A model generated the notes under the pieces. That model ran no database searches. It was not told the origin of the DNA and saw only the letters and a program-made list of their open reading frames with translations. From Candidatus Poseidoniaceae archaeon (GTDB lineage: Archaea > Thermoplasmatota > Poseidoniia > Poseidoniales > Poseidoniaceae), in NCBI GenBank assembly GCA_943789275.1, contig CALSTM010000003.1, positions 672,699 to 704,698 of the forward strand: a stretch of DNA of 32,000 nucleotides, given 5' to 3'. The position numbers and the translations under genes were made by a program. Positions 24,742 to 27,985 of this stretch are shown here, one piece after another (within the stretch, counting starts at the first letter, position 1; each line of letters opens with the position of its first letter).

Positions 24742-25533
24742 ATGAATAAAAAAACCAACACACAACAAAACCAGAACGAACACGGATGGGACGGAGACGT
24801 CCATCCTGAGATTGCAGCTATCGACCATGATGCCAATTTTGAACAAATGGAACAACTGATGAAGATTTACTCAGCCTATAACCACCAGCACAGGAAAGAC
24901 GGAACTGCATGGAAGGTATGGCCGGATTGGGAACTTGTGCTTACTTCGATGAACGATGCATTGCACTTTGAAGATGCGGAAAGAGATACGCCTGAAATCT
25001 GTGCTGAAAGACAACACTGGCTCAATTTTATGGAATACATTCACACGAATGATGCAATAACTATCGATGGCTACACCGCTATAATTGATGGCAGGTTTGG
25101 GCATCAGTTCACCTTTGACATATGCCTCGAGTACGAGTATTGGGTCTCACCTAGAAGTCTCGTAGAGCATTATCAAAAGACCAATGCAGCAAGAACTGGA
25201 CAACTTGGGCCTCCATGGAAGAGGAACACTTTGCTGTTTTTCTCAAGGCATGAGATTGAACACTCACTCGAGGCATATTGGCAATGCCCTGAACACGTAC
25301 CAAATTTTGGTGGACAGTGGACAAGATACACGCACGGTAACAGATTCTGCATTGAGAGACAAGAAGGTGAAACCTTCCCGCTTGCACTGCAAACGCTCAT
25401 GCAACTTTGCATCGATGATACTGATATTTGGAAAATGATGTTTGAACAAGACCTCGCAGATATCGAGCACCATGAATTCATGGAAAAAGAATGGCCAGGT
25501 GGAAGACCTGATCAAGATTGGGAGTACCAATGA
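24742..25533 (+). CDS. Hypothetical Trp/His/Glu-rich protein with an HExxH motif (263 aa); first gene of the plus-strand cassette
   Basis: Track ORF 24646.. reads out of the tRNA. I chose the ATG at 24742 (MNKKTNTQQNQNEHGWDG...) because AAGGAAGTGA (24728-24737) lies 4 nt upstream. It contains FFSRHEIEHSLEAYW (HExxH), but I see no further metalloprotease context. No other recognisable family. Confidence 0.6.
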   Translation: MNKKTNTQQNQNEHGWDGDVHPEIAAIDHDANFEQMEQLMKIYSAYNHQHRKDGTAWKVWPDWELVLTSMNDALHFEDAERDTPEICAERQHWLNFMEYIHTNDAITIDGYTAIIDGRFGHQFTFDICLEYEYWVSPRSLVEHYQKTNAARTGQLGPPWKRNTLLFFSRHEIEHSLEAYWQCPEHVPNFGGQWTRYTHGNRFCIERQEGETFPLALQTLMQLCIDDTDIWKMMFEQDLADIEHHEFMEKEWPGGRPDQDWEYQ

Positions 25534-25542
25534 GGTGAGAAT

Positions 25543-25764
25543 ATGAAAAAGAAAAACAATGAAAATATAGACATACAAACGATAATGGCGATGTTTGTTG
25601 CTTACATGCAACAGCAGATGGAATACACGGAAATGAAGATGGATGTTATGACAGAATGGGAATCTGAGGATTGCGGTTGCAGTGGTTGTGAAAAGAGAAC
25701 ACTTACTGTGCCTGAAAACAATGAGCCTTCCTTCGATGACGAGTTCTCAAAGGAGTGGTTGTAA
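25543..25764 (+). CDS. Small acidic protein with CxCxxC motif (73 aa)
   Basis: Reads MKKKNNENIDIQTIMAMFVAYMQQQMEYTEMKMDVMTEWESEDCGCSGCEKRTLTVPENNEPSFDDEFSKEWL. The strong SD GAGGTGA (25532-25538) overlaps the upstream stop. Its own stop TAA shares one base with the next ATG (TAATG at 25762-25766). Confidence 0.55.
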   Translation: MKKKNNENIDIQTIMAMFVAYMQQQMEYTEMKMDVMTEWESEDCGCSGCEKRTLTVPENNEPSFDDEFSKEWL

Positions 25765-26309
25765 TGTTCGCATGGAGACCGAATGCGAGCGCACCCCTGT
25801 GGGATGCTTCTGACCCTGGCGAGGCTGAAGGTCCGTTTTTCTCAGACATCAGCATTGAGCATGACAAGCAGCTTGGCCCTTCGTGTGTAGCGACCACGTT
25901 GGCAATGATAGCAAGAACGACTGGTGCGGATGTGGGCCCGGATGATTTCAAGAAAATCACCAACTCACAATCGCCACATTCATGGTCCAATGCACTCAAA
26001 CCCTTCGGGATGCAGTTGGCCTATTGCAATCATGATTTGAGAAGAATGGAGCACTACATCGAGGAACTTGTTGAACACAACGATTTGTTCTTTTTGTGCT
26101 TCTACTCAGTGAATCCTCCAAGTGACCCTGACGCAAAGGGCAAACTCTGTACTGCTCACATCGTCACCCTGCACAAGGACACCATCTATGATACTGCAAA
26201 GCACAATCATTCAGGTGGCGTCATTGCAGCGAATGACTATGCAAGGCTCGATAGACAGACCAAGAGAATCTTCAGAGTCGTTCCGCTTGGCCATCCGAGG
26301 TGTGTATAA
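25764..26309 (+). CDS. Putative papain-fold cysteine peptidase, C39-like (181 aa)
   Basis: The pattern Q-x4-C in HDKQLGPSCVATTLAMIARTTGADVGPDDF resembles the C39-like motif (Q....CGPxxLAMvl.yyG). The later KLCTAHIVTLHKDTIYD resembles the His strand (gHyvVl....v.D). The spacing of about 100 aa is compatible. AAGGAG lies 8 nt upstream of the ATG. Assigned by eye only. Confidence 0.5.
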   Translation: MFAWRPNASAPLWDASDPGEAEGPFFSDISIEHDKQLGPSCVATTLAMIARTTGADVGPDDFKKITNSQSPHSWSNALKPFGMQLAYCNHDLRRMEHYIEELVEHNDLFFLCFYSVNPPSDPDAKGKLCTAHIVTLHKDTIYDTAKHNHSGGVIAANDYARLDRQTKRIFRVVPLGHPRCV

Positions 26310-27592
26310 TGAGCCAAAGTATGGCGAGGAAATTGACCCTCGATGGATTAGGAATGTGCGTCACCTACGGTAAAGACAACCAGCTTGGCATTGGTTTGCC
26401 GATAGAGGTTGATAAGGACAGACCGCTGGTTGTTGCTCATCCCGCAGCGGCGCAACACTATCATGCCAGCATGAGTTTGTTTGAAGACGCAGGACACCCG
26501 TTTGTACACGTTCTTGTTGACTTTGGGCAGTATTGTCCGGATGAGTGGCCGTATCACGCAGATAGTGTCAATCATGCCGTTTACCAAAGATTGCATGATA
26601 CTTCTCAAGGACATCCAGTGTTCAGGAAAGTCTGCATCGATGTTCCGCATTGGCAGGTTCACGTTGGAGGGGATGCCTATGCGTATCTCTCCAATGCTCC
26701 CCCCGTCGATGTTTTGTATGTCGATTGGTTTTCTTGGATGGACAGATTCATCACCACTGATGAACATGCATTTGCCGAAATGATGACGCAGTATACCTCC
26801 AAAATTAGAGACGGTGGTCTTGTCATTGTCGACCACAAACATAGGGATATGGGCGAAGGTGGATGCAGATGGTTCAACCATGTTGGTCAAACATTCTCTG
26901 TCGGCCCTCATTCGGTTATGGAACAGGTATGCGACGTTGAATGGCTTGGTGAAAACGTCAATCATGAGATGCAAACATATGCTGCAACGGTGTACAAAGT
27001 TCACCACTCTGCAAACAGCCCTCTCGGCCAGACCGATTGGTTTGATGAAATCAAACCGTGGTTTTGGAATACCGTGCCTGAAATGGGCTTGAGCCCGCCT
27101 CAAGTCCAGAGAATGTTGGACAATGAAACCGAAGAGAGCATTCACCCGAATGCGATGACTTGGGAGAATTGGCACGACACGTGGTCGACGGTTTACATGG
27201 ACGGTAGAGAAGAAGGTTTGACGTTCAAAACTCCAGTTCCTCCGAGGTTTGCATGGCCCTATGAAGCGTATTCGAGTTACTTGCAATGGCTCCTCAATCA
27301 CCCCAAATGTCTGCAAGTAGAACTCAACAAGAGGTCATACAGACTTTCGGGAGAGAACTTTGTGCTCAATCTTGTGCATGGTGACTTGATTGAACTGGCA
27401 CCTGCGTTGTATACGAAACATACAGCATTGGCTGTGAGGCATAAACTGACACAACAGGTGAAAGCGAGATGTCCGTGGTGGAAACATCAAACGACAGTTC
27501 TACAAACAAGACATTCATGGGAATCAAATCCGATTTCTAGCCACTTCAATGGTCGGGTGAGTCAGCAACACCGCATTTGGCCAAGTTATTGA
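26309..27592 (+). CDS. Hypothetical Trp/His-rich protein with a possible degenerate Rossmann/methyltransferase-like N-terminal half (427 aa)
   Basis: TAATG overlap with the upstream gene, and GAGGTG (26297-26302) 6 nt upstream of the ATG. The order and spacing of VHVLVDFGQYC (beta1-like), VDVLYVDWF (beta4-like) and IRDGGLVIVDH (the LKPGG-like strand) mimic class I methyltransferases. However, the glycine loop is not canonical. The antisense 322-aa ORF (26348..27316) is judged a shadow. Confidence 0.6.
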   Translation: MSQSMARKLTLDGLGMCVTYGKDNQLGIGLPIEVDKDRPLVVAHPAAAQHYHASMSLFEDAGHPFVHVLVDFGQYCPDEWPYHADSVNHAVYQRLHDTSQGHPVFRKVCIDVPHWQVHVGGDAYAYLSNAPPVDVLYVDWFSWMDRFITTDEHAFAEMMTQYTSKIRDGGLVIVDHKHRDMGEGGCRWFNHVGQTFSVGPHSVMEQVCDVEWLGENVNHEMQTYAATVYKVHHSANSPLGQTDWFDEIKPWFWNTVPEMGLSPPQVQRMLDNETEESIHPNAMTWENWHDTWSTVYMDGREEGLTFKTPVPPRFAWPYEAYSSYLQWLLNHPKCLQVELNKRSYRLSGENFVLNLVHGDLIELAPALYTKHTALAVRHKLTQQVKARCPWWKHQTTVLQTRHSWESNPISSHFNGRVSQQHRIWPSY

Positions 27593-27616
27593 TTGAACAT
27601 TCCAAAGCCCAAGCTC

Positions 27617-27985
27617 ATGGGATCACGATTCATCACGTCAAGGAGTTTTGAATGCAGAGAAATTGTCACTGTGCCATGGAACTGCAACATTAAGCGAAAC
27701 AATGGCTGCAGTGAGGCCTATTATGAGGAACTGGGCCAAGAGGTTTCAAGACCGCTGTATACCCTCGAATTGACCGTTGTCCATCTCGATGAACATGAAT
27801 ACCAGGAAGTAAATCTCCGAAAATGGAGCAGGAGGGATATGAATGAGTATGACCAGTATCTCAAATGTTATCTTGAATTCGATGATGAATGGCCGTTGAG
27901 TCTCGTTAGTATCGATGCTCAAAAAAAGACCCAATGTTCACCTCATTCACTTGTATGGCATTTACTTCTCCGACAAAACACATGA
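27617..27985 (+). CDS. Hypothetical protein (about 122 aa), last gene of the plus-strand cassette
   Basis: The ORF is open from 27593 (TTG, immediately after the upstream stop). The first ATG is at 27617 and has no clear SD, so the start is uncertain. The sequence (…CREIVTVPWNCNIKRNNGCSEAYYEELGQEV…YLEFDDEWPLSLVSIDAQ…) has no motif I recognise. Confidence 0.45.
   Translation: MGSRFITSRSFECREIVTVPWNCNIKRNNGCSEAYYEELGQEVSRPLYTLELTVVHLDEHEYQEVNLRKWSRRDMNEYDQYLKCYLEFDDEWPLSLVSIDAQKKTQCSPHSLVWHLLLRQNT

Follow-up and report, generated by a model that had tools for sequence, protein, structure and literature searches.

What kind of system is encoded by a tight run of genes of no known family beside the tRNA-Arg genes of a marine archaeon? 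The run lies in a 32,000-nucleotide (nt) stretch of a Candidatus Poseidoniaceae genome (GenBank assembly GCA_943789275.1, contig CALSTM010000003.1, positions 672,699 to 704,698; the whole stretch is hereafter the window). The original prediction, made from the letters of the window, had described a five-gene, translationally coupled cassette resembling a peptide-maturation module or, equally, a defense module. Here, we find that the cassette (genes g1 to g4, joined in the clade closest to the window by a further gene, g5') is a chromosomal operon specific to the Poseidoniales lineage and inherited vertically, that tRNA-Arg genes lie upstream of it, and that a tRNA-like RNA belonging to this operon alone follows it in all but three of the clades that keep g1 to g4. 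Its third protein has a papain fold and its fourth is methyltransferase-like at the level of the fold. Tentatively, we propose a housekeeping-type role in the maturation of a cytoplasmic peptide or protein.

Conservation and inheritance of the operon

Scanning one genome per species in GTDB r232 with motifs of g4 recovered 58 loci, all of them in Poseidoniales, and tblastn with open reading frame (ORF) extraction returned an identical g1-g2-g3-g4 order in every locus long enough to judge. The most conserved protein of the cassette is g3 (54 to 94% identity to the window protein); the ranges are 33 to 92% for g4, 26 to 94% for g1, which is conserved in 56 loci, and 25 to 84% for g2. Homologs with a named source all come from Poseidoniaceae, Poseidonia, Poseidoniales, or Thalassarchaeaceae (Marine Group II), and all are called "hypothetical protein". 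Searches of Pfam, NCBIfam, PHROGs, and PADLOC placed none of the five window proteins in a family, in agreement with the original prediction, which could name no described system of this composition.

The packing that had been read from the window is present throughout g1 to g4 and is not peculiar to this genome. All four plus-strand ORFs have a Shine-Dalgarno (SD)-like motif 4 to 8 nt 5' of the start, the TGA of g1 is embedded in TGAGGTGA, the SD of g2, 4 nt ahead of the g2 ATG, and g2/g3 and g3/g4 share one base in TAATG stop/start overlaps (25762-25766 and 26307-26311). The one-base g3/g4 overlap recurs in 51 of 51 loci, a 6-nt SD stands 5' of g4 in 54 of 55, and g2 and g3 overlap by 1 or 4 nt in 38 of 42. 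With gene order and overlaps conserved across the order, the proposal of a multicomponent system of fixed stoichiometry is supported.

The outer flanks of the operon are often syntenic, with genes for LysE and a metallophosphatase upstream and a pair encoding 286 and 331 amino acids (aa) downstream. They differ in some clades, locus L001 having ribosomal protein L15e upstream and a 747-aa protein downstream. GC content of the cassette (0.45 to 0.48) is near that of its surroundings. Family searches of the window found no integrase, no att-like or tRNA-derived direct repeats were found, neither g3 nor g4 has a relative among the 2.9 million viral contigs of IMG/VR, and the sole PADLOC match is a marginal one to g2 (E = 0.0059, 13.7 bits). 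Given this and the synteny across 58 species, the cassette is a vertically inherited, lineage-specific chromosomal operon, not a mobile or defense island.

A defense or conflict module, or the remnant of a mobile element at tRNA-Arg, is therefore largely refuted, and we regard it as scarcely tenable. The cassette does adjoin tRNA genes, papain-like toxins are among the fold matches of g3, a strain-variable gene for a SAP-domain, Mrr-like protein lies just downstream, and Marine Group II genomes carry Charybdis elements integrated beside tRNAs (bioRxiv 10.1101/2025.08.03.668216). Against these stand its single, order-wide, syntenic occurrence at the same place with conserved flanks, a GC content that does not deviate, the lack of any PADLOC family, integrase, or att-like repeat, and a downstream tRNA-like sequence that is not a copy of tRNA-Arg. 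Two specific forms were considered and rejected: a Charybdis element, on the lack of g3 and g4 relatives in the IMG/VR contigs, and an integrated element whose att site would be marked by the tRNA and a "tRNA remnant", on the lack of repeats and because that remnant is a conserved structured RNA, not a tRNA-Arg fragment.

Table 1. Features of the operon and of its RNA elements in the window
Feature	Position	Strand	Basis
tRNA-Arg (anticodon TCG), first gene of the conserved unit	24536..24609	+	ARAGORN; Rfam 60.6 bits
tRNA-Arg (anticodon GCG)	24622..24696	+	ARAGORN, Rfam; 3' end 45 nt ahead of the g1 ATG
Spacer hairpin, 4 bp (CCAT-GGAG-ATGG), GGAG/GGCG loop	24704..24715	+	RNAalifold, 15 spacers
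g1, 263 aa, acidic, Trp-rich	24742..25533	+	conserved in 56 loci
g2, 73 aa, small acidic protein	25543..25764	+	43 homologs
g3, 181 aa, papain-fold putative cysteine peptidase nearest C39	25764..26309	+	AlphaFold2, Foldseek, alignment
g4	26309..27847	+	tblastn span of intact g4; window ORF ends at 27592 (427 aa)
Indel cluster, 18 positions	27536..28076	.	comparison with a 99.5%-identical contig
g5' remains, frameshifted in the window	27840..28117	+	ORFs in L005, L001, and L063; tblastn
Conserved structured 3' RNA domain	28120..28223	+	blastn conservation; RNAalifold
tRNA-like mini-cloverleaf	28224..28287	+	covariation; covariance model R1

The cassette proteins

The AlphaFold2 model of g3 is of high confidence (predicted local distance difference test score, pLDDT, 95.2; predicted template modeling score, pTM, 0.91) and places C41 at the opening of helix 41-53 and H132 on strand 131-137. 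Foldseek against the PDB gave 23 matches with E < 1e-3, all of them papain-like. The top matches are C39 domains, namely those of PCAT1 (7n87, E = 3.4e-5), LahT150 (6mpz), and ComA (3k8u; template modeling (TM) score 0.63), and further ones are staphopains, the putative C39-like peptidase 3erv, CdiA-CT toxins, and phytochelatin synthase. The C39-like papain fold proposed from the window thus holds, including the Cys/His dyad on which the original prediction had staked itself beforehand. The two motifs that had prompted it, QLGPSC and AHIVTL, are strongly conserved; Q36, G38-P39-S40-C41, H132, and D143 are invariant in the Poseidoniales alignment, and Gln36 (oxyanion hole), Cys41, His132, and Asp143 are the putative catalytic residues.

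An exhaustive profile search of 1.84 billion representatives extended the g3 family to 130 clusters at 50% identity, unannotated and 25 to 45% identical to g3. Across 67 aligned sequences of this wider family, W74 and R171 never vary, and conservation is 90% or more at C41, H132, D143, Y114, and most positions of a C-terminal KRIFRVVP; the Cys is absent from a few distant members. Pfam gave no match to window g3 at E ≤ 1 and no domain in any of the 46 remote relatives scanned out of 130, and the best single relatives reached Peptidase_C39 (PF03412) at E = 0.02 and C39_2 (PF13529) at E = 0.14, both below the cut-off. The g3 profile matched no PDB sequence, and bridging to Pfam through remote relatives failed, the long multistretch matches being NHL-repeat noise. 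Below Pfam thresholds, with no ATP-binding cassette (ABC) exporter as partner and no double-glycine substrate, g3 is a new family within the papain-like superfamily, nearest to C39 but not C39 proper. C39, C39_2, BtrH, and phytochelatin synthase form one papain-like cluster that includes acyltransferases (PMC10318531); hence, peptidase chemistry in g3 is likely but not certain. Remote g3 relatives on contigs such as L066 and L068 are stand-alone genes among dense ORFans, with no g1- or g4-like neighbor beside any of them; our impression is that these contigs possibly derive from large viruses or other microbes.

The end of g4 has to be read from relatives. The original prediction gave a 427-aa protein and a 122-aa fifth protein opening directly after its stop. 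g4 homologs are about 514 aa long and align with the window's 427-aa ORF over its first 96% only. One of them, P0001, is 100% identical to window g4 in its best BLASTP segment (96% of the query); beyond it, the protein runs on through residues found in the other reading frames of the window, most of "gene 5" among them. P0001 is encoded on contig L063, which matches window positions 16959-28270 at 99.46% identity. All 18 of its indel positions lie within 27536-28076 and 38 of its 43 mismatches within 26500-28100, with no indels in the 10.5 kb preceding the cluster, which disrupts the end of g4 and the whole of g5'. In intact relatives, g4 is followed by a g5' of 93 to 96 aa that overlaps the g4 stop by 8 to 11 nt. 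Since the indels split these frames in the window, the boundary described there is a frameshift artifact, and "gene 5" is a chimera of the g4 C terminus and the g5' N terminus. g5' is a clade-specific accessory gene: tblastn recovered it from no more than 15 loci, those of the clade closest to the window, and recovered pieces of it at window positions 27854-28114. The indels match substitutions about 1:1, are confined to 540 bp, and lie beside an assembly-break hotspot (see below); on a rough estimate, a local assembly error is probable and real decay the lesser possibility. Window sequence immediately 5' of the tRNA-like element is accordingly unreliable. A C/D-box small RNA match at 28043-28069 (E = 0.64) falls inside the g5' coding sequence and was treated as chance.

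In relatives, g4 begins with a class I (TylF/TylM1-like) methyltransferase fold of about 240 aa, after which come a helical linker and an alpha/beta domain at the C terminus (AlphaFold2 of P0001: pLDDT 86.1, pTM 0.86). Residues ~1-240 form a seven-stranded Rossmann-like sheet, and the only structural matches to this part are class I methyltransferases. Foldseek against the PDB listed TylM1 (E = 3.5e-4, probability 0.99), CcbJ, and CgnL, these three at E ~1e-4 and probability 0.95 to 0.99, together with a halide methyltransferase, NNMT, and DOT1L, and also Trm14 and RsmF. Matches in BFVD were likewise methyltransferases only, over the N-terminal part, with macrocin O-methyltransferase at the top; in Pfam, TylF was reached at E = 0.033 by 1 of 47 members. 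Conserved positions include D71, where strand 2 ends, and the D139-W140 pair that follows strand 4; the loop after strand 40-45 carries a (nearly) invariant H44-P45-A46-A47-[AG]-x-H-Y-H. The GGLVIVD after strand 5 resembles a TylF motif. The methyltransferase-like character that had been proposed for g4 is thus supported at fold level.

The two smaller hints of the original prediction fared less well. The HExxH of g1 is present in the window, yet only its second His is conserved, and a zincin-type metalloprotease was rejected on that ground. Assignment of g1 to the MNIO/DUF692 enzymes was also dropped: a PDB profile match to MbnB (E = 0.089) vanished with a deeper profile, and DUF692 was absent from Pfam scans of 19 g1 members. 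By hhalign, no internal paralogy was found among g1, g3, and g4, g1 being unrelated to g4. In g2, an N-terminal segment of hydrophobic periodicity is followed by a variable middle that often contains Cys and then by a conserved tail at the C terminus, [FY]xx[ED]W[LE...]. Its CxCxxC is present in the window and in most homologs but missing in L008, L019, and L021, so that a zinc-binding CxCxxC was rejected as an essential feature. Signal peptides and transporters were not recognized in the cassette.

Two other readings of these proteins have to be weighed here. The nearest folds to that of g3 are those of C39 leader peptidases, LahT150 in complex with a leader peptide among them, g2 is precursor-sized and often Cys-rich, and CgnL, a methyltransferase of ribosomally synthesized and posttranslationally modified peptides (RiPPs), is among the g4 matches. 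Together these would fit a classical exported RiPP or bacteriocin, with g2 as leader-core precursor, g3 as double-glycine peptidase, g4 as tailoring methyltransferase, and a secreted product. We judge this exported form very unlikely: the cassette has no ABC exporter or immunity gene at any locus, g2 has no conserved GG/GA site and dispenses with its Cys in several species, Pfam and NCBIfam searches of g1 and g4 found no class-defining enzyme (LanB/C/M, YcaO, radical SAM, MNIO, or ATP-grasp), and vertical, order-wide, single-locus inheritance without patchy distribution is unlike that of secondary-metabolite clusters. In the wider, RiPP-like sense of the original prediction, g2 may yet be a processed precursor, with its conserved N-terminal segment, variable middle, and conserved C-terminal tail.

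Alternatively, g3 might be a regulated intracellular protease of cellular substrates, held by g2 as a staphostatin-like, cotranslated inhibitor or adaptor, with g1 and g4 serving regulation or targeting. The best structural matches of g3 include staphopain-staphostatin complexes and papain-like toxin/immunity pairs, and g2, directly upstream of g3 and usually overlapping it, is the fastest-evolving member of the cassette and has a conserved acidic-aromatic tail like those of docking peptides. Yet binding of g2 to g3 is a supposition, searches of the Pfam, NCBIfam, PHROGs, and PADLOC type showed no similarity of g2 to known inhibitors, and the strict coupling of g3 to g4 and the methyltransferase fold would go unexplained; on balance, we think this arrangement unlikely.

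The tRNA-Arg genes and the tRNA-like RNA

The tRNA-Arg linkage, whose conservation the original prediction had not noticed, holds in relatives. Each of the 26 related loci scanned has a tRNA-Arg (anticodon TCG, except for one ACG) upstream of g1, directly so in 22, and a tRNA-Arg(GCG) follows the first in 20. This linkage holds in the most distant loci and in L001, whose outer flank is different. The distance from the tRNA 3' end to the g1 ATG (spacer 24697-24741 in the window) is 37 to 48 nt in most loci (45 to 47 nt in many) and 17 nt in two, and no spacer contains a run of five or more T. Two of the four pairs of the spacer hairpin change on both sides between two clades (GC<->CG and CG<->UA), which, as possibly only two events, is weak evidence for the hairpin. 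In L023, the first tRNA-Arg (2228-2301) is the one with anticodon ACG, and an extra 2 kb separates the tRNAs from g1. A GTGCAACCGCYG motif some 18 to 30 nt 5' of the first tRNA-Arg (~24506-24518) is conserved across distant clades; an A/T-rich TATA box is not obvious, and the motif could be a promoter element.

At the other end of the operon, and likewise absent from the original prediction, lies a mini-cloverleaf with an acceptor-like stem, a 4-bp D-arm with a GG loop, and a T-arm with a canonical loop (GGTTCGATTCC). In place of the anticodon arm, the alignment of 32 copies has a 4-bp stem with a mostly GNRA-type tetraloop. ARAGORN did not call the element, its score against the Rfam tRNA model is 16.3 bits in the window and 23.9 bits in L034 (cut-off 29), and its sequence is not a copy of tRNA-Arg. 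Paired cells make up 96.2% of the alignment against 37 to 56% for slid controls, and covariation is 0.252 against at most 0.099; none of 500 shuffles reached that of the alignment. Compensatory changes are found both in the T-stem and in the acceptor stem, and the G·U pairs assign the RNA to the plus strand.

Searching with a covariance model of the element (R1) gave a single match in the window, at 84 bits, and a single match per locus in 46 loci, at 74 to 91 bits except for 61 bits where a contig end cuts the copy. All of them lie downstream of g4 or g5'. True tRNAs scored at most 21 bits, and beyond these 47 copies there were none elsewhere in 632 kb. The element lies 10 to 373 nt behind g4 or g5' on the same strand in all but two loci, L056, in which the g4 ORF is truncated, and L020, the two distances there being 737 and 1223 nt. 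An independent sample was taken from metagenomes as the contigs carrying a 20-mer of the tRNA-like RNA. It comprised 41 contigs. In 25 of them, at least 300 nt are available upstream of the element, and every one of these has g4 directly upstream on the same strand; the remaining 16 break off within about 300 nt of it. Hence, the element belongs to this operon alone. Many metagenome contigs start or end within 100 nt of the element (L071, L081, L083, L097, L098, and L100 among others). The element is an assembly-break hotspot, like a tRNA or rRNA gene, which we attribute to its near-identical sequence across co-occurring species.

Between g5' and the cloverleaf, blastn conservation of a structured 3' RNA domain starts right after the g5' stop. 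The domain has a long-range helix, GCCACU / AGUGGU, RNAalifold shows one pair with a CG<->UA change, and a counterpart was found in the Poseidonia clade. In the clade of L017, L018, and L022 to L024, the g4 ORF reads into the domain; hence, the RNA lies on the operon transcript. A literature search returned no paper linking a tRNA-like RNA to Marine Group II, and the element itself is not in Rfam.

These RNA features could instead be the center of the system, with proteins that act on or with the tRNA-like RNA or tRNA-Arg. In one form, g4 would be an RNA methyltransferase; in another, the complex would be a Ro60-like ribonucleoprotein (compare the tRNA-like Y RNA, YrlA); in a third, the charged, anticodon-less RNA would be the aminoacyl donor for g3 as a papain-fold transferase. 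Such a role would account for a D-arm and tetraloop arm that are invariant in sequence across family-level divergence, beyond what a generic processing signal needs, for an RNA found behind this operon only, and for tRNA-Arg linkage kept where outer flanks differ, and it would suit the matches of g4 to Trm14 and RsmF. However, three clades that retain g1 to g4 lack the RNA; its position in the 3' untranslated region and, in one clade, its overlap with the g4 ORF are what a cis element would show; family scans recognized no RNA-binding domain in any cassette protein; and no CCA is encoded in the element. To our knowledge, aminoacyl-tRNA transferases have other folds. We see an RNA-centered role as a minority possibility.

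Proposed working, setting, and comparison with known systems

We favor a housekeeping-type role, perhaps linked to translation, over defense or an antimicrobial peptide for export, because the operon is inherited vertically throughout the order, is linked to tRNA genes, and has a highly conserved g3. What we tentatively put forward, and what may well prove wrong, is a cytoplasmic peptide- or protein-maturation module that would be transcribed with tRNAs and delimited by tRNA-processing sites. The short, length-conserved spacer has no T-run and leaves no room for a promoter, which suggests that the tRNA promoter would serve the tRNA-Arg genes and the operon in one transcript. tRNase Z would then cut behind tRNA-Arg and RNase P ahead of the tRNA-like element, the two cuts setting free an mRNA whose leader is defined and whose 3' end is structured, as with t-elements and with mascRNA on MALAT1. 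The g1 to g4 proteins, made in fixed ratios, would form a cytoplasmic complex that matures a peptide or protein. Within it, the Cys41/His132/Asp143 site of g3 could cleave or transfer a peptide bond, g4 could add a methyl group or use a related adenosyl cofactor, and g2, through its conserved F..(E/D)W tail, could be the dedicated partner, whether substrate, scaffold, or adaptor.

Several observations weigh against this proposal. We infer cotranscription and processing from geometry alone, and the tRNA-like element is missing in three clades that keep g1 to g4 (L001/2, L028/29, and L058/59), so it is not indispensable. That g3 may act on g2 is a supposition: the g2 alignment contains no conserved GG/GA/GS or other cleavage motif, and F68 and W72 of the tail are the sole invariant residues among 43 homologs. 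Papain folds can also be those of acyltransferases, amidases, or toxins. In g4, the fold matches are weak (TM-scores 0.3 to 0.4, identity ~10%), motif I GxGxG is absent, its place being taken by the His-rich loop, and residues ~240-514 (linker and C-terminal domain) have no structural match among those listed; binding of S-adenosylmethionine and methyl transfer are putative. Finally, g1 has no family match in Pfam, NCBIfam, PHROGs, or PADLOC.

More speculatively, the tRNA-Arg genes, the operon, and the tRNA-like RNA might be one system in which the tRNA-like RNA or Arg-tRNA serves as carrier or donor and g3 and g4 build or tag a product on a g2 scaffold. We think this distinctly unlikely; if true, it would be a new tRNA-dependent modification pathway specific to this abundant planktonic archaeal group. 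As a whole, the system unites tRNA-Arg genes and an operon-specific tRNA-like RNA with four or five proteins that lie outside curated families, a combination that matched no system in the family libraries, structure libraries, and literature searched, with the caveat that g3 and g4 belong to known superfamilies. Marine Group II archaea rank with the most abundant microbes of surface seawater. We know of no cultured member, and conserved genes without a known role are thus the main gap in understanding the group. The cassette is such a case, being widespread in Poseidoniales, strongly constrained, and a pairing of two enzyme folds. If the processing proposed above is true, it would represent a prokaryotic chromosomal mRNA cut out by tRNA-processing enzymes and furnished with a dedicated 3' tRNA-like structure; if the tRNA-like RNA partners the proteins, it would represent a new RNA-protein system. 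Both the proteins and the RNA are small and soluble, which makes heterologous tests feasible.

The remainder of the window carries archaeal informational genes, PCNA and Nop5 (the fibrillarin partner), plus peptidases and glycosidases. Between the operon and the 286/331-aa pair, a minus-strand gene (28287-29945) encodes a protein of 552 aa that ends in a SAP domain and weakly matches Mrr-like nucleases; relatives have a different, 470-aa SAP-domain protein in its place, marking a strain-variable slot. The pair itself (29970-30830 and 30827-31822, minus strand) consists of overlapping genes without a family match, kept downstream of the cassette in convergent orientation in many Poseidoniales loci. 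Farther off, a 1941-aa minus-strand ORF (7533-13358) has a subtilase (S8) domain near its N terminus and is divergent from an ABC exporter gene at 13246-15144. A single 677-aa minus-strand ORF (5349-7382) joins glycoside hydrolase family 1 and nucleotidyl-transferase domains, which could be a real fusion or another frame problem.

Compared with known systems, g3 shares with C39 and C39_2 the papain fold, a Cys at the start of a helix, His and Asp on the strands that follow, and a Gln five residues ahead of the Cys. Its C-x4-L-x-M-x5-G resembles the ComA sequence around the Cys. Unlike C39 domains, g3 is neither fused to nor beside an ABC exporter, has no evident double-glycine substrate, is cytoplasmic and vertically inherited, and adds W74, Y114, and the C-terminal KRIFRVVP with R171 as conserved features that set a separate family apart. 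Staphopain-staphostatin and papain-like toxin/immunity pairs resemble g3/g2 in setting a papain-fold protease beside a small partner; in contrast, g2 has no detectable similarity to staphostatins or immunity proteins, and the cassette is neither secreted nor polymorphic. With the TylM1, CcbJ, CgnL, and TylF methyltransferases, g4 has in common the Rossmann-like fold of residues ~1-240 and the acidic D71 at the end of strand 2. It departs from class I methyltransferases in its many conserved His, its 270-residue C-terminal extension, and its lack of Pfam membership.

The RNA side has its own parallels. In Escherichia coli, thrU-tyrU-glyT-thrT-tufB is a mixed tRNA-mRNA operon in which tufB expression is coupled to tRNA synthesis. 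The Poseidoniales operon would be alike in that tRNA genes and a downstream protein gene are transcribed together, and it differs in having four or five proteins and a second, tRNA-like structure at the end of the unit. In MALAT1, an upstream structured domain protects the new 3' end, and the domain ahead of the mini-cloverleaf could act likewise. The t-elements of Haloferax volcanii and plant mitochondria are tRNA-like processing signals and substrates of RNase P and tRNase Z (PMC4326828, PMC1920247). Their structural traits recur here, as in the mascRNA of MALAT1: a tRNA-like acceptor and T-arm, no decoding capacity, and a position at the end of another RNA. Cleavage of t-elements by RNase P and tRNase Z is known, whereas for the element described here it is a prediction from position. 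Unlike t-elements, this RNA is conserved in sequence across an order and tied to one protein operon that begins with true tRNAs.

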